This document shows, one piece after another, positions 1,887 to 22,700 of a stretch of DNA of 64,000 bases. The translations under genes and the position numbers were made by a program. The DNA is taken from positions 32,001 to 96,000 of IMG/VR virus record IMGVR_UViG_3300017746_000002; one strand, given 5' to 3'. Numbering within the stretch: the first letter of the stretch is position 1; every line of letters starts with the position of its first letter. This DNA is from a virus. The notes beneath the pieces were generated by a model. That model was not told the origin of the DNA, did no database searches, and saw nothing but the letters and a program-made list of their open reading frames with translations.

Positions 1887-3746
1887 ATGAATTTAAACAA
1901 CAAAATACTTAGTGATATTACTGTCTATATGAAGTACAGTAGATATATTCCAGAATTAAATAGAAGAGAAACTTGGGATGAGCTAGTTACTAGAAATAAA
2001 GCAATGCATTTAAAAACATATCCTAAACTTAAAGAGGAAATTAAAAATGCATATGAATTTGTATATGACAAAAAGGTTTTACCTTCAATGAGGTCTATGC
2101 AATTTGGTGGCAAACCTATTGAGATTTCTCCTAATAGAATATATAACTGTGCTTATATGCCTGTTGATCATATTGATTCTTTTGCTGAATGTATGTTTCT
2201 TCTTTTAGGTGGTACTGGTGTTGGGTATTCTGTTCAAAATCATCATGTTGCAAAACTTCCTCCTATAAATAAACCTTATACAAAAAGAACAAAAAGATAT
2301 TTGATAAGTGATTCAATAGAAGGCTGGGCTGACTCAGTTAAGTTATTAATGAAATCATACCTTAATGGTAGATCTTCTAAGATTATATTTGATTTTTCAG
2401 ACATTAGACCTAAAGGAGCTAGACTTGTAACGTCTGGGGGTAAAGCTCCTGGTCCTCAACCACTTAAAGAATGTTTATTAAAGATTGAAGGTTTATTAAG
2501 TGCTAAAGAAGACGGTGATCAACTGTCTACATTAGAAGTACATGACATTGTGTGTCATATTGCTGACGCTGTGCTTGCTGGTGGTATTAGACGTGCCGCT
2601 CTTATTAGTTTATTTAGTGCTCATGATGATGAAATGATTTCTTGTAAGTCAGGTAACTGGTGGGAAACAAATCCTCAAAGAGGAAGAGCTAATAACTCTG
2701 CTGTATTAATGAGACATAAAATAACTAAAGAGTTTTTTATGGATATATGGAAACGTGTTGAACTTTCTGGTTCAGGTGAACCTGGGATATACTTAAACAA
2801 TGATAAAGATTGGGGAACTAATCCTTGTTGTGAGATTGCTTTAAGACCTTATCAATTTTGTAACCTTTGTGAGGTTAATGCAAGTGATCTTAAATCACAA
2901 GAAGATCTTAATGAAAGAGTAAAAGCAGCTGCATTTATTGGTACACTTCAAGCAGGTTATACAGACTTTCATTATCTTAGAGAGGTGTGGAAAGAAACAA
3001 CTGAAAAAGACGCTCTTATAGGTGTTTCAATGACTGGTATTGGAAGTGGTAAAGTGTTAAAACTTAATACGTCTGAGGCAGCATTAATTGTTAAAAAAGA
3101 AAATGCACGTATTGCTAAATTAATTGGTATAAGAAAAGCAGCTAGATGTACTACTGTAAAACCTGCAGGAACAACATCCTTAACATTAGGAACATCATCT
3201 GGTATTCATGCTTGGCATAATGATTACTATGTGAGAAGAATACGTGTTGGTAAAAATGAGGCTATATATACTTATTTAGCAGATAATCACCCTGAGTTAA
3301 TTGAAGATGATTACTTTAGACCGCATGACACTGCAGTAATTAGTATACCACAAAGTGCTCCTGAAGGTTCTATCTTAAGAACTGAATCATCATTTGATTT
3401 GTTAGAAAGAGTTAAGAAAGTTGCAACTGAATGGGTAATGCCTGGTCATAGAACAGGATCTAATAGTCATAATGTGTCTGCAACTATATCATTAAAAGAA
3501 GATGAATGGGAAAAGGCGGGTGAATGGATGTGGAATAATAGAAAGCATTATAATGGTCTTGCTGTATTACCTTATAATGGTGGTACATATACTCAAGCTC
3601 CGTTTGAAGATATATCTAAAAAGAAATTTACTGAAATGCTTAAACATCTTATGGACATTGACTTGTCTAATATAATAGAAGTAGATGATAATACAAACCT
3701 TAAAGGAGAGTTAGCTTGTGCTGGCGGATCCTGTGAAATCACATAA
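1887..3746 (+). CDS. nrdJ: Class II (adenosylcobalamin-dependent) monomeric ribonucleotide reductase
   Basis: Motifs RRETW, LPSMR, YNCAY, GxGVG, GGIRRAA, catalytic TNPCCEI, VKPAGT and C-terminal redox pair ACAGGSCEI. No NrdB small subunit is adjacent. Confidence 0.93.
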   Translation: MNLNNKILSDITVYMKYSRYIPELNRRETWDELVTRNKAMHLKTYPKLKEEIKNAYEFVYDKKVLPSMRSMQFGGKPIEISPNRIYNCAYMPVDHIDSFAECMFLLLGGTGVGYSVQNHHVAKLPPINKPYTKRTKRYLISDSIEGWADSVKLLMKSYLNGRSSKIIFDFSDIRPKGARLVTSGGKAPGPQPLKECLLKIEGLLSAKEDGDQLSTLEVHDIVCHIADAVLAGGIRRAALISLFSAHDDEMISCKSGNWWETNPQRGRANNSAVLMRHKITKEFFMDIWKRVELSGSGEPGIYLNNDKDWGTNPCCEIALRPYQFCNLCEVNASDLKSQEDLNERVKAAAFIGTLQAGYTDFHYLREVWKETTEKDALIGVSMTGIGSGKVLKLNTSEAALIVKKENARIAKLIGIRKAARCTTVKPAGTTSLTLGTSSGIHAWHNDYYVRRIRVGKNEAIYTYLADNHPELIEDDYFRPHDTAVISIPQSAPEGSILRTESSFDLLERVKKVATEWVMPGHRTGSNSHNVSATISLKEDEWEKAGEWMWNNRKHYNGLAVLPYNGGTYTQAPFEDISKKKFTEMLKHLMDIDLSNIIEVDDNTNLKGELACAGGSCEIT

Positions 3747-3761
3747 CTAATTAAAAAAACT

Positions 3762-4088
3762 ATGATAATAGATACAACAGTTACAACAGAAAACATTAAA
3801 GAGAAACTAAAAGAAAATGAAATTATGCTTATACAGTTTTGGGCACCTTGGTGTGGACCTTGTAGAGCATTAACTCCTACTATGGATGACCTAGAGGATG
3901 ATTTTGGTAAAGTAATTGGTAGATGTAATACTGATGACAATCAAGATCTTGTACAAGAATATGGTATAAGAGGAATTCCTGCAGTAATTATGTTTAAAGA
4001 TGGTAAAGAAGTAGAAAGATTTGGTGGTAACACTAAAAGTTTCTTTACAGAAAAACTTAACTACTATTTAGGTGCTCTAAAACAATGA
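3762..4088 (+). CDS. trxA: Thioredoxin
   Basis: Canonical FWAPWCGPC active site and cis-Pro loop GIRGIP. It lies directly downstream of the RNR. Confidence 0.95.
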   Translation: MIIDTTVTTENIKEKLKENEIMLIQFWAPWCGPCRALTPTMDDLEDDFGKVIGRCNTDDNQDLVQEYGIRGIPAVIMFKDGKEVERFGGNTKSFFTEKLNYYLGALKQ

Positions 4089-4867
4089 AGTATATAATTT
4101 CATTTACAACAAGTCCAACTAGAATACATAAGTTTGAGAGCATGTTAAATAGTTTATTAACTCAAACTGTAAAACCTGATCTAATAATATTAAATATACC
4201 TAAAGTTTTTAAAAGAACTTCTGAAGAGTATGACATTCCTAATGGGTTAGAAGATAAAATATTTATTAATAAAATAGATAAAGATTACGGACCTGCAACA
4301 AAAATTATACCAACAATACAATATCTTAAAGATAACAATTTTAATCCTACTGAGACAAGAATAGTATATTTAGATGATGATGTAAAGTATCCACCAGCTA
4401 TGCTAGAAGTATTTAAAGAAATGCCTAATGATAATAGCGTATATGTAAGTTCAGGTGCTGACTTTAGGTGTGGACCTGGTACTTGTGATAACCTACGTGC
4501 AGTTAGGAGACATAATGATACGGCTGCAGCTGCTGAAGGGTATGGTGGTGTTTGTGTAAGGTTAGATACATTTAAGGATGATTTTATGGAATACATAAAT
4601 ATATATATAGACAACATGGATTTTTATCTATCTGATGATGTAGTACTAAGTAACTATTATTGTAGTAAAGGAGTATCTATTAAAGTGATTAATATCCCCG
4701 GAAGATTTAGTGTACAAGATATATGGATTAACAAAGGAACATTAGACTACGGATATAAAGAAGACGCATTACACAAAGGTGCTAATGGAACTTCAGTTAA
4801 TAATGAGCAACGTTACAAGAATGTGTTATCTCAACTAGGTATTGATGGGAATAGGTATATTACCTAA
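4085..4867 (+). CDS. GT-A fold glycosyltransferase-like protein
   Basis: N-terminal ISFTTSPTRI...SLLTQTVKPD, DYGPATK, DxD-type YLDDD, EGYGG and a later SDD motif. The ATGA overlap with trxA indicates coupling. Confidence 0.65.
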   Translation: MKYIISFTTSPTRIHKFESMLNSLLTQTVKPDLIILNIPKVFKRTSEEYDIPNGLEDKIFINKIDKDYGPATKIIPTIQYLKDNNFNPTETRIVYLDDDVKYPPAMLEVFKEMPNDNSVYVSSGADFRCGPGTCDNLRAVRRHNDTAAAAEGYGGVCVRLDTFKDDFMEYINIYIDNMDFYLSDDVVLSNYYCSKGVSIKVINIPGRFSVQDIWINKGTLDYGYKEDALHKGANGTSVNNEQRYKNVLSQLGIDGNRYIT

Positions 4868-4935
4868 ATAGCTAGAGCAAAAACAGTACACATAATAATA
4901 ATATACAGTATTGGGGTTATATCTATCTTCTTCAT
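4864..4935 (-). CDS. Putative 23-aa single-TM micropeptide
   Basis: Not in the ORF track. MKKIDITPILYIIIMCTVFALAI* fills the gap downstream of the SET gene and converges on the GT stop. Confidence 0.4.
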   Translation of the reverse strand: MKKIDITPILYIIIMCTVFALAI

Positions 4936-4986
4936 ATAAATAAGATAGATAATATAACTTTAAACTATGTTATGAAAATGTTAAGG

Positions 4987-5322
4987 CTATGTTAAATAAT
5001 TGCATATATCATACATAGAATACTTTAAAGTAAGCTCTTCACCTGCTGTTATCTTACGTGTAGTTCTTAGTCTTTTATATTCTGGATCTTCATCTTCAAC
5101 AAGCTCACAGTTAGCTTCATCAGAATGATTAATGAATCCACCTAAAGGAGTTCTAATATAATCATGTTGAAAGTTAGGGTCATACACATGACTAATTCCC
5201 ATATCTATTTCAGCGGGTATATCATCCTGAGCAATAATACCAGCTCCATGTATATCAGAAGGACCAATAGCCAAATAATCAGGTAGTGGTTTATAGATCT
5301 TAGTTTTACAGTTTTTTTCCAT
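4987..5322 (-). CDS. Stand-alone SET-domain protein (putative lysine methyltransferase)
   Basis: SET signatures SxIHGxG (SDIHGAGIIA), FINHS (GGFINHSDEANC) and GEELTxxY (ITAGEELTLKY) in 111 aa. Confidence 0.88.
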   Translation of the reverse strand: MEKNCKTKIYKPLPDYLAIGPSDIHGAGIIAQDDIPAEIDMGISHVYDPNFQHDYIRTPLGGFINHSDEANCELVEDEDPEYKRLRTTRKITAGEELTLKYSMYDICNYLT

Positions 5323-5324
5323 AG

Positions 5325-8300
5325 TTATTTAATGTAGAAGTCAGTGATACGTTCATATCCCTTCCATCTGTTTATAGTATAAAGAATAGGTAGGGCATCT
5401 CCCCATTCTTTTCCAAGTTTCATTTTTCCTTTTCTATCTCCTCTTTTGTATACATAACTTGTTTCAGAAAATGCTTCATCATCTAAAAACGCATAAGATA
5501 AACCTGTACCAACAGTTACTTCCATAGCTTGACCTAGTTCACCCAACGTTCTTGAAGCTGCTATAGGTGACTTAAACAGTTGCATCATTTGCTGATAACC
5601 ACCCATACCAGGTACAGGGTTAAAAGTTACAAGTTCTTTTCTTAATCTATCTGCTTGATATACTAATACATTTTCTAGTTTCTTTTTTACTTCACTATCA
5701 TCATCGTCATCTTCAAATAGTTTCACTAATAAATTCCTAACTATTATTGTAGTTATAAATAATCCTAGCTCTCCTATTGTTCTATATGCATTCTGTAGCT
5801 TCTGCTTTCCTTTTACACCATGATGTTTCTTATAGTTCTCATGTATACTACCCAGTTCATTTATATTTTTATAAAAGTACTTCATAAAGTTCCAAAAGCT
5901 TAAGTATCTTCCTTCTGTATATCCTAAGTTTTCATCAAAGTATTCTGGTCTAAATCTAGTTTGTATAGATGGCACTACCCACTTATGAAACTGTGCTGCT
6001 AATTGACCTAAAGCATGAGACTGTATAACCATTCTATCTTCATAAGCATAGTTACCATGTATAATTTTATTTACTTCTCTTATATTGTTTCTTATCTCAT
6101 ATCTAGCATCATCATTCCATTCCATGATTTTATCTCTACCGTACATCTGTACTTGATCATACCCTTCTTCCATCTCTAGGGCACCTGTCTCTCTGTTAAA
6201 TATTAATGCATCGTATAAACTCTTTGTTTCTCCTGTTTTACTATTTATTGCAGTATGTGATCTTACTATAACATTACCTATCTTACTTTGTACATTAAAT
6301 TCACCAGCATCCTGAAGAAAGAATCCCCAGTTTGTTAATCTTCTCCACAAACTTTCTTTATCACCTTTTGTTTGTTCACGTAAATCTGATTTATCATCTA
6401 ACATTCTAAAGAAATCTACACTGGCTAAATACTTACTACTAAAGTTAGCAGGCTTCCATTTACTATTACTATCTGTCATCTCAGCTAATCTTGAAAATGC
6501 ATCTTGCAACGCTCTACCATTAAACTCAGCAAGAGTGTATGCCATTTGACTTCCATCAAAGTGTCTAGAACCTAGTGTCTCAATACTATTAGATAATCTA
6601 CCAAATAGATAGTTGTTTAAGTTACCAAAGACGTTAAACCCTACATAAGCTAATGATGTCTGATTAATAAGACCTTTGGTCATCTTTTCAAAAAAGTTTA
6701 AAGTATCCTGATCATTACCATAATATGTCATCTTCATCCATTTCCTAGCTCTTCTATACCTTCTTGATTCTTCTTTAGTTTTTTCACCAGGGACAAGATT
6801 ACCATCTTCATCATATGTAGCTTCAGATCTATCTTGTATAACTTTCATCATAGCAGTATAAGTATCTTCAGCTTGACTCATCACTTCATAATTTTCTGCC
6901 ATAGCTGAAAACTTTAATAGAACCTCATCTAAATTTAAATTTAAATTAGTTGCTTCTGGTCTGCTTTCTATTTTATTTTGTTCTCCTCTTAATACTTTTA
7001 ATTTTTTATTAATTTTATTTTTTTCTGCAGCAGTAGTTGCTTGAGCATACTCAGTATTAGCAGCATCAATTTGATTTTGTATGTCTATTAATTGTTGTTC
7101 TGTTCTTATGGATCCAACATACATTAAAGGAAGTGAGTCTGTTATTATATTACCGTTTTCATCTGTAAATGTCTTTTTAAGTTTTATTGTAGGATTAATT
7201 AAATTACTAGTACCTCTTTTCATACTAGCCCACATTCTTCCTACCATAGTAGACTTGTTTTTTAAACCTTTCATTTGAACACCCTCCATAACAGGAAGCC
7301 TTCCTAACATTCTTATATTATCTGGAAGTTTATTTAATAGTTCACCTTCATACACATCCATCCACATTTGATAAAACTCTAACTGTGCTCTCTCAAGTTC
7401 AGTTTTAGGGTCATGAAGCTTTAACCACTGATCACTTCTCATTTCTGTACCATCTGCTGCCCGTTTTCTTATTTCTCTAAATGTTCGTTTAGGTGCACTC
7501 ATGTGTGATATAACTATACCACCAGTAGGAATACCATCACTATCTGTTATTGCTTTTTCATAATCAAAACTATCGTAATATTTAGCTCTATAATCATTCC
7601 AGTCTTTATCACTAACAGAGTTTCTTCTTACCCAGTAACCAAATTCAGATTCTGGTTCTTGAAACCATACCTCATGCTTTTCTCTTGCATCTTTAAATTT
7701 TTGAGAGTATCTATGGAATTTACCATCTCTAGGTCCTGCAGCACCAAATCTTTCTGCTTTCATATAATCTCTATAGTCTCTTTTATCTTGAAACAATTGT
7801 TTATTATATGCAATGTCTTCTGGCTTTGCATTATCTAAATTTTCAGGATCAATTAATCTATATGTTTTATACTTACCATCTTCATCATAAAGCTTATCTC
7901 TAAGTACTTTTCTTTTTTCGTAGTATTGTTTACCTATTTCTTTTACATATCTTCCTGTAGGTATACCATTTTCATCTGTTTCAATCATCCACATGAAATC
8001 CTCATTGCCTAATTTCTTTAATTTTAATGATGCTGCTTTAATCCTAGGGGCACGTCTAGCAACTCTATCTAATACTATTTGTCTATCTCTTTTCCAGATC
8101 TTAGCCATTAAAGCAGAAATAGGATCACTTGAAGTATTCATATCACTAACTGCTTCATCCACAACACCTATGTCTTTAGCTGTAGTCATTATCTCATTAA
8201 GTTCTTCTTCAGTAAAATCTCTTTGTGATTTACTTTTTACCAATGCTCTAACATAATTACGTATACTTGCATCAAAGATACCTTTATCACTTGGAGACTG

Positions 8301-10754
8301 TGCATTACTTATACCAACTAATTCATTGAGTTTTTTTATTAGTTTATTTACCATTAATAATTGATTCTTAGTTAAACCAGAATCTTTCCCTTGTAAGTTG
8401 TGTAGACCTCTATAACTCTCAACAAACTTTTGCCATCCTAGAATCTTTCCTATATATTCTGGCTTTCCAAAATTATCTGGATCTGTTGCATATTCCTTAA
8501 AGTTTTCAATAGTTCTTAATGACGCTGTTATTATGTCCATGTATATTGTTTTAACCTTTTCAGGATTCTCATATACTTCTCCAATTAGAGCTCTTGTTAC
8601 AGAAATTTCTTCCAGGATCTCTTTCTTACCTTTATCTAATGAGATATAACCTCTAGTATTAGAAAGAACTTCCTGTGATGTCATTAAACCTTTATCAAAC
8701 TTAGTAAGAGCTTCAAACAAAGCATCATAAGTATCATAAGAATAATCTTCTTCATTTTCAGGTAATGCTTCTTCTTCAGTTAAGAAATCTTCTTTAGCTT
8801 CAGGAGCTTGTTCCATTTCTAATATTTCTTCAATAGTAGTTTGTTCTACAGAATCAATATCTAATGGAGCAATTTTTTCTACTTGCATTTTATTTACAGT
8901 AGATTTAACAGGTGTTATGCCTTCTATAGTATGGGTATTACCTTCTGCATTAATATTTATTACTAAACTGTTTTCTGCTAACTTATATCCCATATTCTCA
9001 AGAAGTCTTCTTTGTAATGCAGAACGTGTATCATTAAGTATTTTTGTTGAAACACCTTTTTCAAATAGTTCTGACTCAGTAGATATAATATCTTGAGAAT
9101 ATGCTGTTGAAAAACTACTAAGTCCACTAATAGATAAACTTATTGGTGTAATTACTCCGTTAACATCTACTTTTAATAAATCAATGGTGTCTGCAATACC
9201 GTTCTCAGAGTTACCAATAACTACATTAGGAACAAATACACTCCTATCATCATGAAGACCATACCCATGTACAATTGCACTTAGTTGACCCATTAATCTT
9301 TTAGCTGCTTGATCATTAAAATAATCAAAACTTAGATCTTCAACTTCTGTTTGAGTAGTTAACCCTGTAAGTAGAGTATGAAAATCAGTTCTTATTTTTC
9401 TATTAACAGAATCAGTGCTGCCTAGTATAACTTCTTCTGTGCTTTTAAATTTTATACTTGCATCATCTACATCTTTATACTTACCATCTTCTAATGTAAT
9501 TCTATTTAATCCTAATATGTCATGTTCAAACTTATCAGACTTTAAATTATTAAATAAATTCTCTACTATTGCTACTTGAGTAGGATTAGCGTGTTTTTTT
9601 ATAGCATCAAGATTACTCTTTGCCTGCGGTGTTAATGAAAACATTACTGTTGGGCTAACACTTTTAACTAGATTAAACTTTAGTTTATCAGTGTTTAATA
9701 TCTTTGCAATATCAGATAATGTAGCCGTAGAGTTAATATATTCTGTTTTTAATGGTAATCCTTGCCCTACATGTTTTCTATAGTAATCACCAACTATATC
9801 TTTAAACCACTTTAAGAACTCAATAATATTATTATACCAAGCCCTACTAGGTGTTGACTCATATTCTTTATTGAAATGTCTAACTAGTGATTGTGTAACT
9901 AATTCTAATGCTCTTACCTTTTTTGAAAATCCTCTTTTGTACGTATCTTCAATCTGTTGATTTAATACAGGGAATGTTTTTTTTGCTTCTGCATGTAATT
10001 TATTGAACAACTCTTGATTATCTAAAAATAAAGATTCAACAAAAGGATGTAACACTTCTTCTACTGCTGTATCTTTTGTTACTCTCCCTTTTATAAGTAT
10101 AGCTGTTCCATCATAGTAAAAGCTTTTTACTTTTTTAAATTCTGTCTTAGTTGGTCTAGCTTGTGCAGGTAGTGTGCTTAAAAAAAACTCAGCTTCTTTC
10201 ACACCCATAACTTTAACCTTAAGTCCAGGAAATTTTTCTACAAGACTATCTACTAACTGTAATATATTTGTTTGATCTTTATACTTTTTACCAGAATATG
10301 GTGACTCAGATATAATATCTTTAGGATTAAATAAACCATCATCAAAAAATACCTCATATGTTTTACCACTTCTAGTTGGTTCAATTCTTATGTAATCTTG
10401 AAAACCATGGTGTAAAAGATAGTTTCGTATTAATAAGTAATTATACTTAGCCCTTAACATATTACCTGTCGTTTCACCAGGTGTTGTGTTTTGTACAAAA
10501 TATCTACCGTCAACTTTTGCAATTAACTTTTTCTTTTTTAAGTTTCCATATAAAGAATTTTCAAAGTTCTTTTTTTCTAATGAAAAATATGCTTTCCTAT
10601 CTGCTAATAAGTCTTCTACTTCCATTACTGAAGGTATTAAATCATTTTTAGAAGCAGCTTGGTAATTAGTAATCAAAGCATCAACAATCATTTTGTCTTT
10701 ATACTTATCTTCTAAAGCTTTATATTCTTTTGTATTTACATTAAAACACGCCAT
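5325..10754 (-). CDS. Large virion cargo/ejection protein (1809 aa)
   Basis: It follows the virion RNAP gene after a 1-bp gap and is mostly helical, with a hydrophobic C-terminal segment (LGLFITTIIVRNLLV) and degenerate zincin-like and PD-(D/E)XK-like motifs. The position matches crAss-like cargo genes. Confidence 0.65.
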   Translation of the reverse strand: MACFNVNTKEYKALEDKYKDKMIVDALITNYQAASKNDLIPSVMEVEDLLADRKAYFSLEKKNFENSLYGNLKKKKLIAKVDGRYFVQNTTPGETTGNMLRAKYNYLLIRNYLLHHGFQDYIRIEPTRSGKTYEVFFDDGLFNPKDIISESPYSGKKYKDQTNILQLVDSLVEKFPGLKVKVMGVKEAEFFLSTLPAQARPTKTEFKKVKSFYYDGTAILIKGRVTKDTAVEEVLHPFVESLFLDNQELFNKLHAEAKKTFPVLNQQIEDTYKRGFSKKVRALELVTQSLVRHFNKEYESTPSRAWYNNIIEFLKWFKDIVGDYYRKHVGQGLPLKTEYINSTATLSDIAKILNTDKLKFNLVKSVSPTVMFSLTPQAKSNLDAIKKHANPTQVAIVENLFNNLKSDKFEHDILGLNRITLEDGKYKDVDDASIKFKSTEEVILGSTDSVNRKIRTDFHTLLTGLTTQTEVEDLSFDYFNDQAAKRLMGQLSAIVHGYGLHDDRSVFVPNVVIGNSENGIADTIDLLKVDVNGVITPISLSISGLSSFSTAYSQDIISTESELFEKGVSTKILNDTRSALQRRLLENMGYKLAENSLVININAEGNTHTIEGITPVKSTVNKMQVEKIAPLDIDSVEQTTIEEILEMEQAPEAKEDFLTEEEALPENEEDYSYDTYDALFEALTKFDKGLMTSQEVLSNTRGYISLDKGKKEILEEISVTRALIGEVYENPEKVKTIYMDIITASLRTIENFKEYATDPDNFGKPEYIGKILGWQKFVESYRGLHNLQGKDSGLTKNQLLMVNKLIKKLNELVGISNAQSPSDKGIFDASIRNYVRALVKSKSQRDFTEEELNEIMTTAKDIGVVDEAVSDMNTSSDPISALMAKIWKRDRQIVLDRVARRAPRIKAASLKLKKLGNEDFMWMIETDENGIPTGRYVKEIGKQYYEKRKVLRDKLYDEDGKYKTYRLIDPENLDNAKPEDIAYNKQLFQDKRDYRDYMKAERFGAAGPRDGKFHRYSQKFKDAREKHEVWFQEPESEFGYWVRRNSVSDKDWNDYRAKYYDSFDYEKAITDSDGIPTGGIVISHMSAPKRTFREIRKRAADGTEMRSDQWLKLHDPKTELERAQLEFYQMWMDVYEGELLNKLPDNIRMLGRLPVMEGVQMKGLKNKSTMVGRMWASMKRGTSNLINPTIKLKKTFTDENGNIITDSLPLMYVGSIRTEQQLIDIQNQIDAANTEYAQATTAAEKNKINKKLKVLRGEQNKIESRPEATNLNLNLDEVLLKFSAMAENYEVMSQAEDTYTAMMKVIQDRSEATYDEDGNLVPGEKTKEESRRYRRARKWMKMTYYGNDQDTLNFFEKMTKGLINQTSLAYVGFNVFGNLNNYLFGRLSNSIETLGSRHFDGSQMAYTLAEFNGRALQDAFSRLAEMTDSNSKWKPANFSSKYLASVDFFRMLDDKSDLREQTKGDKESLWRRLTNWGFFLQDAGEFNVQSKIGNVIVRSHTAINSKTGETKSLYDALIFNRETGALEMEEGYDQVQMYGRDKIMEWNDDARYEIRNNIREVNKIIHGNYAYEDRMVIQSHALGQLAAQFHKWVVPSIQTRFRPEYFDENLGYTEGRYLSFWNFMKYFYKNINELGSIHENYKKHHGVKGKQKLQNAYRTIGELGLFITTIIVRNLLVKLFEDDDDDSEVKKKLENVLVYQADRLRKELVTFNPVPGMGGYQQMMQLFKSPIAASRTLGELGQAMEVTVGTGLSYAFLDDEAFSETSYVYKRGDRKGKMKLGKEWGDALPILYTINRWKGYERITDFYIK

Positions 10755-10755
10755 A

Positions 10756-13700
10756 TTATATATTACATTTTAGGTTTTCCATAAATTTGCTAATTGATAT
10801 ATCCACTTTAGCATTAGTTTTATTATAAGCTGCAATTAGATCTTGTGCATTATAAATCTTCATAACATTGTTTGCACCCAATTTTTCTTCTCCAGTTAAT
10901 TTATCCCATTCTTTTTCAAGTTTAGAATCATTATCATTTCCTTTAGCTTGTTGACTTATACTTCCAGACAAAAATGATACTGGATCTACTACAGTACTAC
11001 TTTTTTCTTCAGCATTATCTTCTTCCAATCTAAAATCTTCATTTTCTTCATCAATTTCTTTATCAGATTTTAAATCATCAAGTGTAATATCAACTTTTTC
11101 ATTTTCAGTTTCTTCAGTTGCAGTTTCATTACTTTGTGCTTCAGGTGTAAAATTATCAATTGCAGTTTCAGCCGCTTGTTCTGGATCTATAACTGAATTA
11201 AATATGTCTTTTTTATCTTCTATATATTTCTTTATTTCTTTTTCAGCAGGTAGCTTTCCAAAAACTAAACCTATTGCATTTTGAGATAAAGATCCTACTT
11301 GTTCTATTTCAACATATTCTGCATAATTTCCAACCGCAATGTTGTTTTCATTATCTATAATCTCATAAGGATCTGTAATTGTTTTATTATCAATACCCTT
11401 ATAAGAAACAAGCTTATATAGTTTTTTATCTTTTTGTCCAAATTTACCTACACCTATACCCATTTCCATAACATATGGAAACTGTATTAGCGTAAGAGTT
11501 TTTGTTTTTGATACAGCTTTCATTGTTTTAAATCCAGATCCTCTTCTAATTATATAAATATTTTTTTGTATTTGATCTGATTTATCACCTTTTTTAACAC
11601 CTTTAAAAATATCAACAGTAACTGTTTTTTCTACATTATCTCTAACAACAGGATTTTTCTTTAAATTTTTATTTATAGCCTCTTGAGTTTTAATACCTGC
11701 TTTTGATATAATAGTTTGCTCACCATTCTCTAAGTTGTTATATACCATATCTTTCTGCAAAGATAATAATGTTTTCTTAGTAACCTTATCTATATTAGTA
11801 TTTGTAGAAAATCTAAAATCATTTCCTCTCATTAGCTCTGTTCTGATTTCAGTCCCATTTGAAGCATAATCAGTTGCAGTATTAATAAATGATGCTCTTA
11901 TTAACTTTTCTAATAAGATCATTTCATCTTCACTTCCTCTTTTCTTAGCAAGTTTTGTTTCAATAACTTTACCATGGGCTTCATCTATACCGTGTTTTTT
12001 ATATTCCTTGTCTACTTTTTTATCAAACTTACCTTTTCTAAGAACTTGAAATGCATGAATAACAGAACCGTATTCCTTAGTCTGATATTTAAACACTCTT
12101 TGAGCAAGATTTGATAAAACTTGTGTAGTTTCATCACCTTCTGCAACATCATAATCTACTAGTATAGAACGTTCTGGTATTACTATTTCTTCTGTATTAT
12201 ATGAAGATACTTCTCCACCTACTTTTGTACTTTTTAAATCATATCCAGTCTTACTATGAGACATGTAATCTTCAAGAAATTGTGTAGTAAGCTCTTCATA
12301 AGATACTCCAAATAATTTTTTATATTTATTATTATTAATCTTAGGGTCTTTCATTAACAAATGAATATCATTAATGGTATTTATTATATCATCAGTAACA
12401 GAAGCTGGTAATGCTGACATAAAAGTATTAGGACCATAACGGAAACCGTCTTTTACTAATAAATAGTTTATCATGTGCACCGCATCATGATGAGTATTTG
12501 GATCTTGATATAATTCTAAAAAACTATTTTGTATTCTTGATAACTCTGCATCATCAATTCTAGTCCATGTATTTGAGTTTATTTGTGATATACCTGAAAA
12601 ATTATCTTCATTATTAGTTTTTCTTAAGGTTATATACTTATCTATAAAATGATTATTCTTTTTAGTACTACTTAAATATTTCGTTACTCTTTCAACTACA
12701 GTATCAACACTTAATGCACCTTGAGGCATAGAAGGGAAAATTTTATTGTCATATATCATTCCATTTTGTAATGAGGCTCCTTGCCATGATTGATATGAAT
12801 TATTTAAAGTCCTATGTATATAAGATTTAGTATTTAAATAAGCAATAAGATCTACTGATATGTTTCCTAATTTACCAGGTTTAGTATATGTAACTTCAAG
12901 ATTTTTTATTAGAGTATTATATATCTTTTCAAATGGCTCAGTTCTTTGTAAGAATACTGCAGGTGCAAGGTAATCATAAGATTCTCTAAATAATTTATAA
13001 TTAGTTGCATGTATGTTTCTACCTTTTTTAAATATATTTCTAACATCTACAAGTATATCTGTATCTGCCTCAAATTCTTTATTAGTCATTTTTAAACCTA
13101 ACCCAATAGCAGCATCTTCTTTTCTTTGCATTGCTTCTAAGTCTCTACCTAATCCTTTTTGTAGATTAACCAGCTCTGTCATATTTCTTATTGACTCTGT
13201 AATATTGTATGCAATTAAAAACTGATCTATTGCTGCAAGGTCAAATTGTATTTCTTCATCAGACCATTGACCTATCCCAACCAAAGTTACATCTTGAGTT
13301 TTATCTAACTTAGGCGTGCCATCAGTAATAGCATTAAAATGTTTATTCATTCTTGTTAAAGACTCAAGACTAATTACTGGTGTTCTAGTAACTTTTTCTA
13401 ATTCCCCTTTTATTTTTCTTTTTCTAGTTTCTAAAACTGTTTTAATATTACCATCTACTTTTCCATTTTTTAGTTGATCAAAAGCAAAAGCAATTGTTGG
13501 GTGCTTAACTAAAAGAGTAATTGTTTTTATATCTACACCAAGAGCCAACATAGTTGTTACTGTAGCTAATGAATTTTTAGTAAGACCTAACTTCTTTGCA
13601 AGCCTTTCTTTAGCATTATCCGTCATTGCTGTTACTAAAGCAGATACAACAAATTGTTTTCTATATAGATCAGTGCTTTGTTTACCTGTTTTAGGGTCTA

Positions 13701-16700
13701 TAGTATACTCTACACCAAAATCATCATAAGAATAATTATTTCCATTAAGAGATAGACGGTCAAATGTTTCTACACCTTTTCTTTTTTTGCTTCTTAATTT
13801 AATACCGTGCTCCTGAAGAATATTTATAAGGATGTTTGGAAGTACTACAGCACCAATAGATCTTGCACCTTCTTTATTATTATCCCAAGCAGTAATTTTA
13901 CCATTAATATTATTTATATCTATTCCTGTCTCATTAACTTCTTCTGCTAATTCAGGTAATTCTCTTTGTATATATTGCCACGTTCCTTCACCAAATAAAT
14001 CTGTTGCAGCTTCATCAGTTAAAGGTGTAAGTACAGCTGGCTCAGAAGCAATAGCTTCTATTCTACCAGCTCTAGGGTCAGACATACCTTTGTTTCCAAG
14101 CAAAGCAATTTTACTATCTAAGATAACATTGTCTTGTGCTCCTTTATAAGGTTCTCTCATTATTGTTTGATCACCTATAGTGTATGTATGTTTTTTTCTA
14201 TAAGCTTTATATTCTTCAAATGATACTGGTTGACCTAACATAGTCATTGCTTCAGATAACCCTTCTGCTCTTTTAAATAGTTTTTTAGATGTTTCTACAT
14301 TTAAATCTGTGTCTGATGTAAGAAGACCAAACAACTCTATTTTTATTTTTAGTTCTTTATTTTTTAAATATTCTTTTATAAATTCTTCTTTAGCTTGAGG
14401 TGACATATTAGCTGTCTTTTCAGTTACTCCTAGTCTTTCAACGTTTTCTAAAGATTTTTCTCTACGTAAAACTTCTTCAACAGCCATATATAAACTGCTG
14501 TTCTTTTTACCATATTCATTTAATGTGTATTTTATATAATCATAATACGCATCTTCCATTCTTTCAGCAGAACCATATTCTATAAACTCTCCATTTTGTA
14601 CATAGAAGTCTTTAATATGCATATAAAGTTTATCAATATCAAAATCCGCTCCAGATATTTCTACAAGATCTCTTGAAAATATTGCAGATGAACCATAATA
14701 AACAGGTAAGAAATCTACAAGCTTAAGATTAACTGCTGAATGTTTATCTTGTGATGGTATTCTAATACCAAACATTTTAGCAATAGCATCTGGTATATTA
14801 TCTCCTATACTTAAAGGGTTTTCTAGTATAGATTTAAAATGAGGAGGCATTACAAATTCAGTATACTTTATACCAGTAGGTTGATTATTAGAGTCATACT
14901 CCATTACACCAGATCTTAAATGATCTAAATAATATTCATTTCTTTTTAATCCAGAAAAAGTTTCATTGTCTTTATCAGTATATGTTTTAGCTTTTAAATT
15001 TGGATCTAGATTTTTTAAACCTTCCCAATCATTAGATCTAATTACTGTCCAACGTATAGGTACTCCGTCTTTATCAACTGCTTCTACTTTTTTAACAACT
15101 TTAAATCCTGCATCTGAAACTAATGCTGCTGATATTCCAGGTTGTCTTTCTGCTAATACACCTTTACTAAAGAATGCTAAGAATAATTCTTGGAACTTTT
15201 TTACAGTAAGTTGGTTATTTAAATCATATTTTGGTTCACCAAACGCATCCATACCAAAATAATCTAGCATTTGTGATTTTGCTTGTGATGCTTCAAGACC
15301 TTTTATTGCATATTTTAAGAATGCTGTAAGGTTAGTAGTCATTCTTTTACCTGCATCTTTAGCTTTTATTAGTTCATCTTGTGAACCAGCCCAAGAGAAT
15401 ACTAAGTTTCTTCTTTTAAAGAATTCATTCTCAACTCTATCTGACATTGTATTATGAAATAAATTAATAACATCAGCAATAGACATTTCTGTTCCTGCTA
15501 CATTAACTAATTCATCTAACTTCTGTTCACTTGTAATTAAGTTCTTAATTTGACGAGGATCAATAACCTCCACTTTGTTAGAAGGATTAATAAGCTGTAG
15601 TCTCATATACTTAGCTCTAAGATCAGTTGTCATATCATTTGTCAAACTTCTATCATCATATGCAGCTTGTGTATCTTGCATATTCATCTTCATCATCTTA
15701 GATGCTGTAGCAGGTACAGCTATACTTACAATACCGTTACCTTCATTTTCTTGTTCTTGCTCAAACTTTTCTAACTTAACTCTTAAATTGTGTAACTCTA
15801 CTCTTCCCTCTCTTGCTACCATTTCACCATTTCTTTCTATAGATGTAAACTCAGGAGTCAAAACAAATGCTGACATCTTTAAGAATACTTGTCCATCAGC
15901 ATATACAAGTTTTAAAGAGTTCATAATCATATCTTGCTCTTTATAACTAAGTTTATTAAACCCACCAAAGAAATCATTATCAACCTTTACCATATTACCA
16001 GCAACAATCTGTTTTAATATATCATTCTTAGTTTTATTCCATTTACCAAAACCAAACATAAAGTGCTTAAAAGATTTTGTAGTAATATACATTTGACCAT
16101 CTGTTCTATCACCTTCTTGACCTTCTTTTTGTCTGTCTGATTCTATTATAGTATCAAATTCTTTTTTTATTTTTTCATCATTAAATAATAATTGCTTAAT
16201 TATATCTGTCTCATGATTAATACCAATTTCAGGATCACTAATTAAAGAACTAGCATTGGGTCCAGCAGCATTTTGCATCTTAGCTCTTTTAATCTTATCA
16301 ACAGCATCTTTAAGTGAATATGCTTCATCACCAAGAACTAACTGATTAATACCAATAGTGTTAAGTTGGTCATTTAAAAATATTTGTGCTAGATTATAAT
16401 CTAAGTTACCTTCTTCCATATTGTACAGAGACATTAATAGATCTGCTGAATCATTTTGAACTACTTGTATTTTACTGTTATTATCTTCTTGCACTTGACC
16501 TAAACCTTCTGAAATTTCAGTAGATATTTCATCCCATGCTCCTGTTTCTTTAAGAGTAATAATAAACTCATTAACATCTTGCATAGCTCTGCTTCTTACA
16601 GCATCATCACCATTTAACTCATTCCATAATGTATCAAAATCAACCATTTCACCGGTTCTTGCTTTTTCAATAGCTTCTTGTAGACCATCAACTACTGATG

Positions 16701-19700
16701 TATCTACATCCATAGTTTCACCAGTAATAATTTCTATTGCTTCGTTAGTAATTAAATCTTCTTGTGACTCATTAATTTGATCTAACTTATCTTTTAGTAC
16801 TTGAACTAGTCTGTAATCTTCAGCTTCCAAGGCTATGTCTATTCTTTCTTGTAATTCTTCTATAGTTTTAACAGTTATTTGTTTAGTGCTAAGACCAACT
16901 TGAACTTTAGAATCTTTAGATAAAGGAACAAAAGAAAATATATTTCTTGAAGTTGTAGATTTATCATTTAACCATTGTGCATCCTTAAGTAAGTATGTAT
17001 AAAATGTTTTATTACCATTTCTAAAAGAATACATTCTTCTATTCTTATCTTTACGGTTAGTGTATTGTTCAGATGTAAGAATTGAAGTACCCATCTCTTT
17101 CATTAACCTATCTTGTTCTGCATTGGTTATATCACTAAACTTCTTAAAACCTTGGTTGTACATTACAAACTGCATACCTCCAATGTCAACAATAGAATTT
17201 TCTCCAACAGATAGATTAGTTGATACAGCAACTTCACGGGATCTTAATACAGTACTAAGATTACCAGCAATTAGTTCTTCAGAAACTACATCTCCTATAC
17301 TAGGAGCTTCTATATTAATAGCTCTGTTCTTCCTAGCTTTTAATGAGTTTGTTAATTCTGCAACATCATCTATTCTAGTTAAACGCCCTGTATCAGTTCT
17401 ATTATTATCTTTATCTGTATTTCCTAAATAGATACTTTGTTTAGTTCTAGTTTCAGGATTAGCTTCTCTTTGTGCTCTTTCAAAAGATTGTTTAACTATT
17501 GTTTTTCTTTTTTCTACTGCTTCATCAGTTAAAGTTAAACCTTCATCTGACATTTCCACTTGCTTATATATTGCTAACGGTGCAAAATCTCCAGTGTTAG
17601 ATGCTTCAATAACTCTTATAAATATAGGAGCTAATACAAAAGGTTCACCAGTTTCTTTATCATAAAATTTAGGTGATTTATCAGGTGAAGTTCTATTATA
17701 ATAATACAAGTATGTGTGAATTAAACTTAATGCAAATTCTTTAGGTGTTGATGAACCAAACTGAACACCAGGTTTTTGATTAACATCAAGAGCTTTATTT
17801 TCTCTTAATACTCCATTTTCACTTATGTTTAATATACCGTCAGATTTAAGCCCAGAAATTCTCATAGGGTTTATTAAACCTTTTTCCACTATTGTTTGAA
17901 ACTTAGAGTCGTTTAAAAGTACATTATCCTTCATAAAAGGACTCTCTAGTATTTTGTTTGCAACATAGTCTGCCCCTTTCATTTCAATAATCTTTTCTAA
18001 ATGCAGTGTAGGCATTTGATGTGCATATATTAAATTTCCTTTAGGATCTTTAAATACAGTAGCACCAACAGATTCAGAAAATGGAGCATTGTTTATTGAT
18101 ATTTTAATAAGTCTAGATTTTATACCATAGAGTTCATCTGTTTTTTTAGAAGTATCTTCTCCATCTACGTCTTGGTTATCAAGAAATATGTTTTCTCCTC
18201 TGTTAATAGACTTTACTAATTCTTCAATGTCTACTTCTTCTATAGCATCATACATACTAAATGTATCAACTAGCATTTTTTGTTCAGGTGTAAAATTAGA
18301 TTGATCAAGAATATTAGTTAGAACACTATATTCTAAATATAAAGGACTAATGTCCATACCAAGATCAACTCTTAAATCTTCTGCTACTGAACTAGCTCTA
18401 TCAGATAGGTTTGTTTGTTCATCTATTTTAGAAATTGCCATTAATTGAGTTAGACTATTTAATGTTAGTGTTGCATTTGTATTTTCTTCAGAACCAAGAA
18501 CTTTAACTAAGTTATACATTTTATTAAATGAACTAGCCCATTCAGATAGTGTATGATGTGCATCATCTTTAGTAGTAGCAGAATATAAATTTACTACACC
18601 ACTACTATCTTTTTGCCAAAATATGTTATCTACTCTAAAGTTCATAAAACCATTTATAAACTGTTGGTATAATTCAGAGTCTTTTATCTCAGGTAATGTG
18701 TAATTATCATCAAACAATACTGCTGTTTTACCTGCATCATCCATAGCTTTATCAAACAGTCCAATATCTTTAAAGAAATTATCAATAAAGGCTTTACTGT
18801 GTGGGTTTTTTCTAGAATATAACCATGCTTTTTTAATTATCTCTATTTCATTTACTTCATTAGCAACTGCTTTTAGTATACCGTTATATACTCTATGTGC
18901 ATCAACACCAATGTTTAAAAGTTCAGTTTCAGCATCATCAAAATACTTATTACCGTATGTATCTGCTTCATTTAATGTAGTTAGACCAATATATGTTCTA
19001 AGGTCTGGACTTAACATTGATGAAAAACCTCCTATTTCATCACTAGATTTACCCCATTCATTTATAGATCTTACACCATCAGCTTCTAATTCTGCAATAT
19101 CTTCTTCTTCAAGATTTATCTTTTCAGCAATATCAGCAAGCCTTTCATTTACCATGTCTTTAATATCTTCAACTTGATCTAACATTGAATCATACATGTT
19201 CCTTACATGAGGAAGTGTATCTACTTGCCATTCCTCACTTTTTTGCATATAGAAATCTCTATTTGGATTATACATTTCAATTGCTAAGAAGACTACCTTT
19301 TCTAATTCTTCATTTTTATTAAAAACTCCTTCATGATTTCTTTTTCTTTTAAGGTATAGGTTTGTTATACCAGAAACAATAGTATGTTGCTGATCTGCAG
19401 GCATTACATTGTTTATTCTTTTTTCTATAAACTTTCCTTTTTGTGTTTTACTTTCATAACGAATATCTAATGTACCTAATCTAATTGACTTTTTGTATGC
19501 TACAGATGGAACTCCTTCTGCAGCCGCTATAGTAAACTTATTAGTTTGAACACCAGCTCTTTTATATTTTCCACCATCAATATCTTTAAATAATGAATTT
19601 AATTGATATGACTTATCTGCTTTAAATTGTCTTAATACTGCTTTGATAAAGTCTATAATTCTAGTAAACAAACTCTTAATTTCTGTATTTGTTTTAGTAG

Positions 19701-22700
19701 TAGCAGGATTCATTTTAAATTCCTCAAATCTATCTGCCATATACTCCTCAGCTAATATATCAGATAATTCTTTAGTGTTCATCTCTTTATAACCCATATC
19801 TATTAATCTTAAGAAGTCAAATGCTTCTGACTCAGATTTAACAAAGATACCTTTATCTATCTCATATCCTTTTTCAGTTCTATATAATGCTCTAAGTTCT
19901 TTTTTAGCAATACTACTATATTTACTCATCTCAGTATCTGTTAGTAGCGTCCTATATACTGCATGGAATGCTTCATGATATTTAAATGGAGCCATTGCAC
20001 TAGTAGCAACTTCCCCTCCTAAAACGCTATCAAATGCATCAGTTTTTGGATTATATATAGACTGCATAGCTAATTCAAAATAACCTACAGTCATAAATTT
20101 ATCTTTCAGTTTACCAGTAAGATAATTTACATATGCTTCTCCTGATTCATGAAAACCAGTCATATCAGATAGTAATATTGTATCAGGTAGATTTGCAGAT
20201 AACCAATCTCTAAATGTATCTATATCCTCAATATCATTACCATCAAAGTTTCTTGTAATCTTACGTATTTTAAAACTATCTTCAAATGCTTTTTTAACAG
20301 CAGCTTTTAACTCTTGTATTTTAGGATCAGTTATGACAATTTGTTGTAAAACTCTATTTATAGCAATTTTACCATCATTAGTTTCTTCATTATATAATTC
20401 AGCATTACGTGCAATTAACTCAGCTCTTTTCTCAGCTCTTAACTTTATTGTATAATCCTTAAGCTCTCTCTCTAGTCTTGAATGTTCAGCAAGTGCTTTT
20501 TGATTTTCAGCTTCTTTAGGTGTATCAGCAGGTACAGCAGATTGTTCTAACACTTCTATTCTAAGTTCAGCAATTCTATCTCTATATGCTGCTTGAACTT
20601 CTTTTTCAAATTCATCAAGACTTTCTCCTATATTTAATTTAACAGCAATTATTTTTAATTGGTCATTAGAAATATTTTCATAATCATCTAATGCAGCATC
20701 CTGTCTTTGTTCTGGTGTTAATTCTTCAACTACTTCATTATCTTTTTCTCTTTCTCTTTCTGATCTTTCTTTTTCTTTAAGAGCATCAGACTTTCTAATT
20801 ATAGGTGTTGTTAATCTAGATATATTACTTCCTTCTAAGTTTAATGTTATGTAAAAACCTTTTTTAACTTCTGATGTTAAGTTTGTTCTTGCAAGAGACA
20901 ATACATTAAAATCCATATTCTTTTTATTAATAGGATATTTAAATGAATTTTTAGTAGGTTGAAAAGCTTTAAAATTTTCATCAGTTAATGCAGCAATCAT
21001 ATCTTCTGCATTATTCCATTCTTGTACTGCTTCAAAATCTATAACTGATTTTAATCTATGATTTTCTGCTTTATCAGATACATTAAAGTTTCTAATTGAA
21101 ACATTTAAACCTCCTATACTGTTCACGTTAAGTGTAACAAATATACCAGGACCCGCAGCAATAAACATACCAGGTAGATCAAATTCTGAATCAGCAGGTG
21201 ATCCATCCATTAATTCTTTATTCCACTTATCATTAAAAGTAATATCTTCAAAATGATTATCATGTGTATCTTTAGATCTTTCTTTTATACTATTTAAAAA
21301 ACTATCAACATCATCAAGACTCATTGTATCTGGAGTAAGTGTAACAATAGCATATTTACCATTATCTAACTTTACAAGAGCATTATATTTACCTTTTAAG
21401 TTAGGGCTTTTAGATTCTAATTTACTGTAAATAGATATAACCTCTTGATACAATTTTTTACCTGCTGGTTTAGTTGTATCAATATTATTTACTGGATTAC
21501 CTTTTACTTTAGAATAAACCCACTTACCATCTTTGTTTTTGTATTTTGAAGGGTAGTTTCTATTGTAGTCCATAATAAAATATGGAGGTTGACCATCTAC
21601 TGTAATATCTGAATAATCCGCTCCTTCTACATCTGTAACTACATATTTATAATCTAATTCACCAAACGTAGCTCCTTGTTCTCCTTTACCGGTTAACCTA
21701 GTTAATGCTCCTTCTGATAACGTAACTCCAATATCTTCAAGATCTGCTATATCAATAATAACCTCCTCTTGGCCTGATTCATCCAACGTTTTTTGCAAAA
21801 ATTCTTCTATAGCATATGCTTGAACATAATTGTTTTTAATCTTGTCAACTATATTATCTATGTTATCACTTTTATATGTTCTAAATAAATCATATGCTTG
21901 TTGATTAGTTATTTGAAGTGGGTCAATAGTATTACCATTACCATCTAACAATACTACCGAACTTGAACCTTGAAAAAATCCTACAGTTTCAGCAACTAAA
22001 TTACCCTCATCATTTATTTGTTCTGATATTATTTCAACATAAAGTTTTTGTTTTTGAATTCTTATACCAGGATTTTTAGGATCTTCTCCAAATTGAAACT
22101 GCTGAAGTTTATTTACATTAGTTTGTCTATCATCCCATTTAGGACCTCTTCTTATTTTTAGTTTTAATGCTCCCTGCTTTTCAGGACTTAACTCTCTTAG
22201 TAACTTTTGAAGTCTATCATTTGCTTCTTTTATTCTTTTTTCTTTATTTTTTATAGCAAAATCATACTTTGGAATAATTGAAAGAGGTTCCCTAGTTAGT
22301 ATCTTAGATATTCTTGTATCATCATCAATAGTCTCATTCTCAACTAAAGTCCAATTATTAATAAAATCATCTACTTTAATAAACTCTTGATCACTTTTCT
22401 TTTTACTATTTGGATCATATGCAGGTCTTAAATGTATTCCCTTCTTAGTTAGTTTATTACCATGAACCATAAACTTATCACCCGTTTCATTATTCTGTAC
22501 AATATCACCTTTCTTTAAAGATACTTCTTCATTAAGTTCATATCCTTCTTCTTTTTTATCTTGTCTTACTTTTTGATTTCTAGAATTAGTTGCATCTTCT
22601 ACTGAACCATATACATCATCATTAATAGGATCACCATTGTTATCTACAATTCTATACATTTGTACGTCCCCTTCTTCTTTTGAGATAGTAGTTTGTTGAA

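Follow-up and report, generated by a model that had tools for sequence, protein, structure and literature searches.

A putative mini-SET methyltransferase gene, optional in marine crAss-like phages and related to genes of other marine phages and bacterial chromosomes

SET enzymes are the textbook modifiers of histones, and to our knowledge little is known of their roles in bacteria. The present analysis concerns a small SET gene in a 64,000-nucleotide stretch of viral DNA, hereafter the window, which covers positions 32001-96000 of a virus record of 123,269 bp (IMG/VR IMGVR_UViG_3300017746_000002) that is rated complete and has a GC content of 32%. The closest described counterpart of its product is vSET of the chlorovirus PBCV-1 (A612L; structures 1n3j and 3kma), which, according to an excerpt of PMC7019647, methylates lysine 27 of histone H3 (H3 K27) in its eukaryotic host and is carried inside the virions; a reference title in the same excerpt describes it as dimeric. 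SET methyltransferases are also found in prokaryotes: cpnSET of Chlamydia pneumoniae methylates Hc1 and Go1-SET of Methanosarcina mazei methylates MC1-alpha (PMC3980110, in the part available). BurB of Burkholderia thailandensis, a 172-aa tetrameric SET enzyme, converts free methionine into S-methylmethionine (excerpt of PMC12542666).

The phage protein resembles vSET in being a virus-encoded bare SET core of ~110-120 aa with no pre-SET or post-SET region; vSET is its best structural match, and a homodimer is predicted for it too. It differs from vSET in that its host is presumed to be bacterial and to lack H3, in sharing only 18% identity with it by structural alignment, and in belonging to a family with its own YxPLP and RTPLGG signature, located in the predicted dimer interface. 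The H3 K27 substrate and the virion packaging of vSET are not transferable to the phage protein. Go1-SET and cpnSET are SET methyltransferases that act on basic DNA-binding proteins in cells without canonical H3; they are cellular rather than phage-borne, and they are likened here by description, not by sequence. BurB is comparable as a small bacterial enzyme that depends on S-adenosylmethionine (SAM) and whose fold accepts a free amino acid, as stated in the excerpt of its source, but it is longer than the 111-aa phage protein and tetrameric instead of a predicted homodimer. The family profile has its best sequence matches in SET domains of the MLL/KMT2 type (e.g. 4z4p, 7w67, 2w5y), but these belong to large multidomain eukaryotic H3K4 enzymes needing partner subunits, unlike the bare core of the phage protein. 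No study of a phage SET enzyme was found among the papers listed for phage, crAss-like and prokaryotic SET proteins, a search that did not cover the table of bacterial SET genes in PMC3980110; the sole "set" match in the crAss literature was to immunoglobulin "C2-set domains", unrelated to SET enzymes. Databases already label relatives "SET domain-containing protein".

We consider with good confidence that the gene encodes an active, optional and laterally moving SET methyltransferase that is unlinked to cargo genes. The fuller reading that we favour, with confidence slightly above even, is that of an optional, laterally moving, SAM-dependent mini-SET enzyme, probably one that works as a dimer and methylates lysine in a conserved protein of bacteria. 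That its substrate is a lysine of a host protein has, taken by itself, a nearly even chance. A first-pass annotation of the window had proposed instead a phage-encoded methylation system tied to the cargo genes and to virion assembly or delivery, an interpretation that is partly supported by the results presented here.

Fold, motifs and conservation of the mini-SET protein

The open reading frame (ORF), its translation and the Pfam match confirm the earlier description of a minimal SET protein with intact motifs that begins 2 nt past the stop codon of a 1809-aa gene (Table 1). The translation holds H25-G-A-G28, N65-H-S67 and E96-L-T-L-K-Y101, and no other ORF of at least 50 aa lies at 4987-5322. 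The Pfam SET model (PF00856) was matched at 35.4 bits against a cut-off of 22.4 (E 1.5e-8), with residues 62-101 only in the alignment, and the match was recovered again when the whole phage genome was scanned. The family phrog_28741, whose function is not annotated, matched residues 9-106 (E 3e-23). Base composition bears no mark of recent foreign origin (GC 0.33 vs 0.32; GC at third codon positions 0.18 vs 0.17).

The family is large: 2989 of 2993 candidate protein clusters at 90% identity match at E<=1e-3, and clustering at 50% identity leaves 883 matching clusters. An alignment of 103 members (A1) served as the basis of the family profile and of the AlphaFold2 model. Four residues are invariant across it (G42, R57, E96 and Y101), and Y10, P12, L13, P14, S22, I24, G26, G28, H45, P59-F63, N65-S67 and N71 are kept in 90% or more of the sequences, giving the signature YxPLP ... 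RTPLGGFxNHS ... EELxxxY. In SET domains, the GxG and NHS motifs bind SAM and the last tyrosine serves catalysis; Y101 presumably occupies the position of the catalytic tyrosine of lysine methyltransferases. When the profile was compared with the PDB, MLL-type SET domains were matched at E about 1e-11, with the NHS and ELxxxY half aligned to the same motifs; for vSET (1n3j) the match spans positions 11-100, at E 7.8e-10. The AlphaFold2 model is a confident full SET fold, with a mean predicted local distance difference test (pLDDT) score of 88.5. Its top Foldseek match in the PDB is vSET chain 3kma_A (template modelling scores 0.67/0.70, root-mean-square deviation 2.7 A), which is thus the nearest solved structure, and 199 PDB matches reach E<=1e-3, those listed being all SET or PR domains. 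From a library of viral structures, SET proteins of uncultured viruses or phages and of giant viruses were matched best. The protein therefore lies above the Pfam cut-off, carries GxG and NHS/ELxxxY, and is predicted to have the SET beta-fold.

A codon comparison among the crAss-phage copies gave a median dN/dS of 0.123 (1148 of 1540 pairs used, with 0.05<dS<1.5), and the gene is under purifying selection. Taken with the counts of matching clusters, this value places the SET identity far above chance. It could be argued that the gene is a non-catalytic or decaying remnant carried as a passenger, since it is optional in relatives and Pfam aligns the C-terminal half only. This explanation is very improbable in view of the low dN/dS, the invariance or near-invariance of the presumed SAM-binding and catalytic residues in the 103 sequences, the confident complete fold, and a degree of conservation that equals that of the large terminase subunit (TerL) within the clade described below.

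In homodimer prediction, the protein scored 0.77, vs 0.21 for the best of three controls; among proteins of solved structure, 20 of the 30 pairs and 1 of the 23 single chains attain this mark. Contact agreement between the runs is at least 78% and the pLDDT of the partner at least 81. The predicted interface is composed of family-specific residues: Y10, P12, 18-20, 56-59 (including the invariant R57), G62 and F63. The score may be due to likeness to the vSET dimers already solved; with this caveat, we propose that the protein would work as a homodimer, as vSET does.

Several longer forms of the family deserve mention. Pfam detected a second domain in only one of ten such proteins, the metagenomic P0211 (363 aa), where Amidoligase_2 (residues 3-239) is fused to a C-terminal mini-SET of the same family. 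P0219 appears to be a SET-SET tandem whose second copy is degenerate. A link through fusion of SET to capsid domains was considered and rejected: among 15 longer forms, the non-SET parts match no protein of the phage or of neighbouring loci.

Presence and position of the gene among viral loci

The sets of loci compared here are samples of relatives, retrieved by short peptide patterns with at most 80 loci each, and the fractions describe these samples. The first set comprises 63 viral loci with a close SET relative. The gene adjoins a TerL and/or portal homologue in 53 of them (both in 47, TerL only in 5, portal only in 1, these six one-sided loci running off a contig end), the identities of TerL, portal and capsid having been assigned by PHROG and Pfam on locus L032. 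Where TerL is the neighbour, the SET ORF as called either adjoins it or extends into it, with spacings between +1 nt and a 20-nt overlap. The order seen in the window, a cargo-like gene followed by SET facing a ribonucleotide reductase (RNR) gene, recurs in 2/63 (L040, L049). In three others (L043, L045, L051), SET ends a block on the opposite strand and faces a gene of 1458-1665 aa, and the remaining five consist of three identical copies of another context and two singletons.

A second set was anchored on the 1809-aa "cargo" gene itself, through a profile of the C-terminal 500 aa of its product, and yielded 64 viral loci. The family hidden Markov model (HMM) detects SET in six of them: in four, including the contigs of L040 and L049, it lies just past the cargo-like gene and in the same direction, and in the other two (L162, L205) it is confined to the opposite strand, where it runs in the direction of RNR or of genes from the replication side. 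In L162 it stands 3' of RNR on the strand of RNR. The other 58 loci carry no SET, six of these being weak evidence since they have less than 2 kb downstream. Near relatives L152, L153 and L155, with 51-53% identity in the C-terminal region, are among those where the cargo gene meets RNR with no SET between. One IMG/VR relative (L154:6595-7267) carries a tail-to-tail pair of distinct mini-SET genes in the slot between cargo gene and RNR: a 106-aa copy of the window type after the cargo gene and, on the other strand 3' of RNR, a divergent 122-aa copy (HMM E 4e-11) without the NHS triplet.

The third set, 80 loci of the TerL-SET-portal clade whose TerL proteins are 82-100% identical, has SET in 59 loci; two loci are too short, and in the other 19 of 78 informative loci the gene is absent and the TerL-portal gap is about 80 nt. 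Together, the three sets indicate that SET is optional in both lineages and sits in variable slots. The content of the slot between cargo gene and RNR differs among relatives, its borders being the RNR block and the end of the cargo gene, and it takes SET in both orientations. Adjacency to a cargo-like gene is not conserved, and SET is not a fixed member of a cargo/RNA polymerase (RNAP) module.

These counts bear directly on the system proposed in the first-pass annotation, in which the enzyme would modify cargo or virion proteins, for instance at the basic N-termini, during assembly or delivery. Such a role would agree with the position of SET directly past a co-directional cargo-like gene, both in the window and in 4/64 cargo-homologue loci, with its position at TerL/portal, likewise a late module, in 53/63 loci, and with the pairing of an acidic enzyme (isoelectric point, pI, 4.7) with basic N-termini. 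The tie to cargo genes did not survive the comparison: homologues are mostly unlinked to them, 58/64 cargo-homologue loci lack SET, near relatives included, the gene is found in either orientation, and 19/78 loci of the TerL clade do without it. Members of the family are also carried by a siphovirus-type pelagiphage, by T4-like cyanophages and by bacterial chromosomes that have no such virion proteins, and none of the six records with a SET match in INPHARED is crAss-like, although the RNAP region of the window phage matched 75 records there. We regard a cargo-linked methylation system as quite unlikely.

The window and L032, a TerL-SET-portal locus, share 71% identity in SET, vs 26% in TerL, 22% in portal and 23% in capsid; with the 59 closest of the 63 viral loci, the identity of the window SET is 68-78%. 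Within the TerL clade, the median identity is 0.85 for SET, 0.86 for TerL and 0.69 for portal (276 pairs, 24 loci). SET thus evolves about as slowly as TerL, and constraint alone is insufficient to account for the contrast of 71% with 26%. Transfer of SET between crAss-like lineages would be the simplest account. In the tree, from which the truncated rows L052, L053 and L063, identical duplicates and genome-locus copies below 85 aa were left out, all 45 crAss-phage SETs form one clade with a support of 96 in the Shimodaira-Hasegawa-like approximate likelihood ratio test (SH-aLRT), and the window copy stands beside that of L049, nested among copies with TerL context. The Flavobacteriaceae (37 rows) and Marinimicrobia-type (14 rows) sequences form their own clades, with an SH-aLRT of 99 each. 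We propose that the gene moves between marine crAss-like lineages and may settle at the TerL/portal junction or at the cargo/RNR junction, in either orientation.

The clean presence and absence among close relatives, the variable slots at module junctions used in both orientations, and the pair of mini-SETs in L154 would also suit a function in counter-defence or host takeover, in which a lysine methyltransferase disables a defence or regulatory protein of the host and is kept where that factor is met. None of five proteins was matched by PADLOC, the library of which covers defence and not counter-defence, and the conserved chromosomal homologues in housekeeping contexts fit poorly with a purely anti-defence role. 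This explanation is unlikely.

Homologues beyond crAss-like phages and the proposed substrate

Six INPHARED records match SET with 41-52% identity and represent four distinct phages: Pelagibacter phage Kolga, a single-cell marine virus and the cyanophages P-RSM6 and P-SSM7. The gene follows an AAA protein, lies beside baseplate genes or, in P-SSM7, comes after nrdA-nrdB among metabolic genes. In the last case (L003:370-4300) it is just 3' of the class Ia nrdAB on the same strand, and in L162:6477-8698 it is just 3' of a 619-aa homologue of the class II RNR of the window, which the window SET faces; this proximity of SET to RNR in two unrelated phage lineages may be a coincidence of variable regions. 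In P-RSM6 (L002), an annotated hypothetical coding sequence of ~25.7 kb (103907-129628) lies two genes 3' of SET, beside the baseplate genes.

Homologues also occur in cellular genomes. In GTDB, with one genome per prokaryotic species, a relative is encoded in 292 of 297 candidate stretches; the contexts of 80 loci were examined, and a SET ORF could be called in 77. SET is followed by metK in 14/77, with ahcY next in 13 of these, mostly in Marinimicrobia, some of them on contigs of 400-700 kb; in L078:4986-7926, a 108-aa SET and metK share 19 nt, with ahcY as the next gene. SET, SAM synthetase and S-adenosylhomocysteine hydrolase form a conserved operon in Marinimicrobia-type genomes. A GDSL esterase gene lies just 5' of SET in 16 Flavobacteriaceae loci; in one of them (L110), an SBF transporter precedes the pair and a converging GT9 gene comes after. 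The order argC-SET-proC, with a SET of 91-97 aa, is found in three Flavobacteriia loci (L124:4023-6088, L103, L108), a site that appears to be an arginine biosynthesis operon. The contexts of the other 44 loci are different. Some hits in metagenome-assembled genomes (MAGs) evidently come from phage contigs binned with cells: L083 (Rickettsiales MAG, 120 kb) is like the window crAss phage, with SET facing a 619-aa ORF, L101 (Pelagibacter MAG) resembles a Kolga-like pelagiphage, and L136 (Methanobacteriota MAG) resembles a cyanomyovirus.

The coupling of SET to metK and ahcY supports, indirectly, that the enzyme would use SAM, and it says nothing on the kind of substrate. The overlap with metK and the presence of ahcY in Marinimicrobia suggest a heavy SAM turnover, which leads to another possibility, that of an auxiliary metabolic gene for a small-molecule methyltransferase acting, like BurB, on a free amino acid or metabolite. 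The argC-SET-proC order in three Flavobacteriia and the place of the P-SSM7 gene among nrd and metabolic genes would be in line with it. On the other hand, all the nearest structural and profile matches are protein-lysine SETs, and the tyrosine at the presumed catalytic position of lysine methyltransferases is invariant. BurB chains were absent from the 42 PDB sequences matched at E<=10, from the 60 listed of 140 profile matches and from the Foldseek list down to rank 50, the presence of a BurB entry in the PDB copy used being unverified. Genes of the dimethylsulfoniopropionate (DMSP) pathway were likewise not seen by PHROG and Pfam downstream beside SET in the window. A small-molecule substrate is rather unlikely, but deserves to be kept in view.

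We propose rather that the enzyme would methylate a lysine of a conserved bacterial protein, nucleoid-associated or involved in translation, and not a crAss-specific virion protein, because the family is common to phages with unrelated virions and to bacterial chromosomes. By analogy, the prokaryotic targets of cpnSET and Go1-SET, Hc1 and MC1-alpha, may lend support to the same proposal. For the same reason, the candidate targets named earlier lose weight: the basic N-termini MAKKKK, MAKKKQ and MAKIKINK are present in the window, and compared with such phage sequences, a protein conserved in bacteria is the likelier target. The lysine-rich IHF-like protein that had been placed in the window was not found there; comparison of two small window proteins with the PDB was uninformative, and the sole Bac_DNA_binding match of the genome, at 19.9 bits and below the cut-off, is outside the window (genome 107443-107604). 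Likewise, the view that a bacterial host has no H3 and nothing comparable holds for H3 but is incomplete, as marine Flavobacteriaceae carry chromosomal SET homologues.

Several observations weigh against the lysine methyltransferase that we favour, or against parts of it. The coupling to metK-ahcY, or the site in the arginine operon (3/77), suits a metabolite enzyme at least equally well, and the methylation of free methionine by BurB (PMC12542666, excerpt) is a precedent for such chemistry in a small bacterial SET. The position of SET inside a late structural operon in 56/63 viral loci fits a virion-related role too. The pI varies in the family, from 4.7 for the window copy to 9.3 for that of phage Kolga; charge is thus not uniform, and the targets may differ between clades. 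Finally, the tree, with 125 rows and 122 columns, leaves many forks unresolved.

A more specific form of the hypothesis would make the protein a phage counterpart of vSET: made late, and either packaged together with the RNAP and cargo proteins or active as infection ends, it would be delivered to methylate lysines of a conserved nucleoid or translation protein of the bacterium, and so copy or override a mark set by the chromosomal homologues of Flavobacteriaceae and Marinimicrobia. We assign a low probability to this scenario.

Genomic setting and significance for marine phages and bacteria

The genome that holds the SET gene is that of a marine crAss-like phage, as judged from its proteins: Pfam finds Crass_capsid on the genome and CrAss_Ring_1 and CrAss_Ring_2 on two window proteins, and the order of TerL, portal and capsid genes is distantly similar to that of another marine crAss-like locus (L032). 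A megablast search with 8 kb returned no near-identical phage record. SET is the terminal gene of a minus-strand string running from genome position 115446 down to 36987 (Table 1).

Table 1. Features of the window around the mini-SET gene.
Feature	Position	Strand	Description
Mini-SET methyltransferase gene (putative)	4987..5322	-	111 aa, ATG start, pI 4.7; ORF and translation, Pfam SET, phrog_28741, AlphaFold2 model
Stop-start junction	5320..5327	-	TAA of 1809-aa gene at 5325-5327, 2-nt spacer, SET ATG at 5322-5320
AT-rich hairpin in 119-nt gap between converging genes	4916..4958	-	fold -15.4 kcal/mol, z -2.36, matched by 3/200 shuffles
1809-aa gene	5325..10754	-	directly upstream of SET; homologues at 64 viral loci
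5257-aa giant protein with crAss-type RNAP catalytic region	10756..26529	-	GADFDIDKL at residue 3962; tblastn
Converging block	1887..4867	+	class II RNR 1887-3746, thioredoxin 3762-4088, 260-aa protein without assignment 4085-4867; PHROG and Pfam

The first-pass annotation had placed SET at the end of a virion RNAP/cargo operon. The RNAP homologue and the place of SET as last cistron were borne out; the name "cargo" of the 1809-aa gene is given by position only, its product having no match in Pfam, PHROG or the PDB. In a tblastn search, residues 3500-4500 of the 5257-aa protein matched 75 phage records, mostly gut crAss-like phages; the 25 listed are all crAss-like or uncultured gut or faecal phages (best listed E 4e-11), and several are annotated as RNAP catalytic subunit. 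The giant protein therefore holds the crAss RNAP catalytic region, and the label of a virion RNAP operon stands. In the virions of phicrAss001, cargo and RNAP-associated proteins were detected, the latter of 154-277 kDa (PMC10172136, in the part available), a size range that the 5257-aa ORF far exceeds. Three other large ORFs of the same operon (3247, 2408 and 1809 aa) have either no family match or only one to "virion structural protein", most large neighbouring proteins are without a PHROG or Pfam match, and a PDB sequence search found nothing for the 1809-, 2408- and 3247-aa proteins or for the first 4999 aa of the 5257-aa protein.

Judging by gene order alone, we propose that SET would be made late, as the last cistron of this structural/RNAP operon, with its translation probably coupled to that of the 1809-aa gene upstream. 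The hairpin beyond SET is modest and may possibly be the operon terminator; a consensus terminator scan and a search for inverted repeats in the 119-nt gap were both empty.

The result corrects the earlier view: the gene is a mobile, optional one, and no part of a cargo-linked methylation system. It belongs to an uncharacterised and widespread marine SET family, large and strongly conserved, that is common to abundant marine phages (crAss-like phages, a pelagiphage and cyanomyoviruses), Flavobacteriaceae and Marinimicrobia. Near-identical phages that occur in nature with and without SET could readily be compared to identify its target. If the improbable counterpart of vSET outlined above were true, marine bacteria and their phages would share, and compete over, one system of signalling by lysine methylation.

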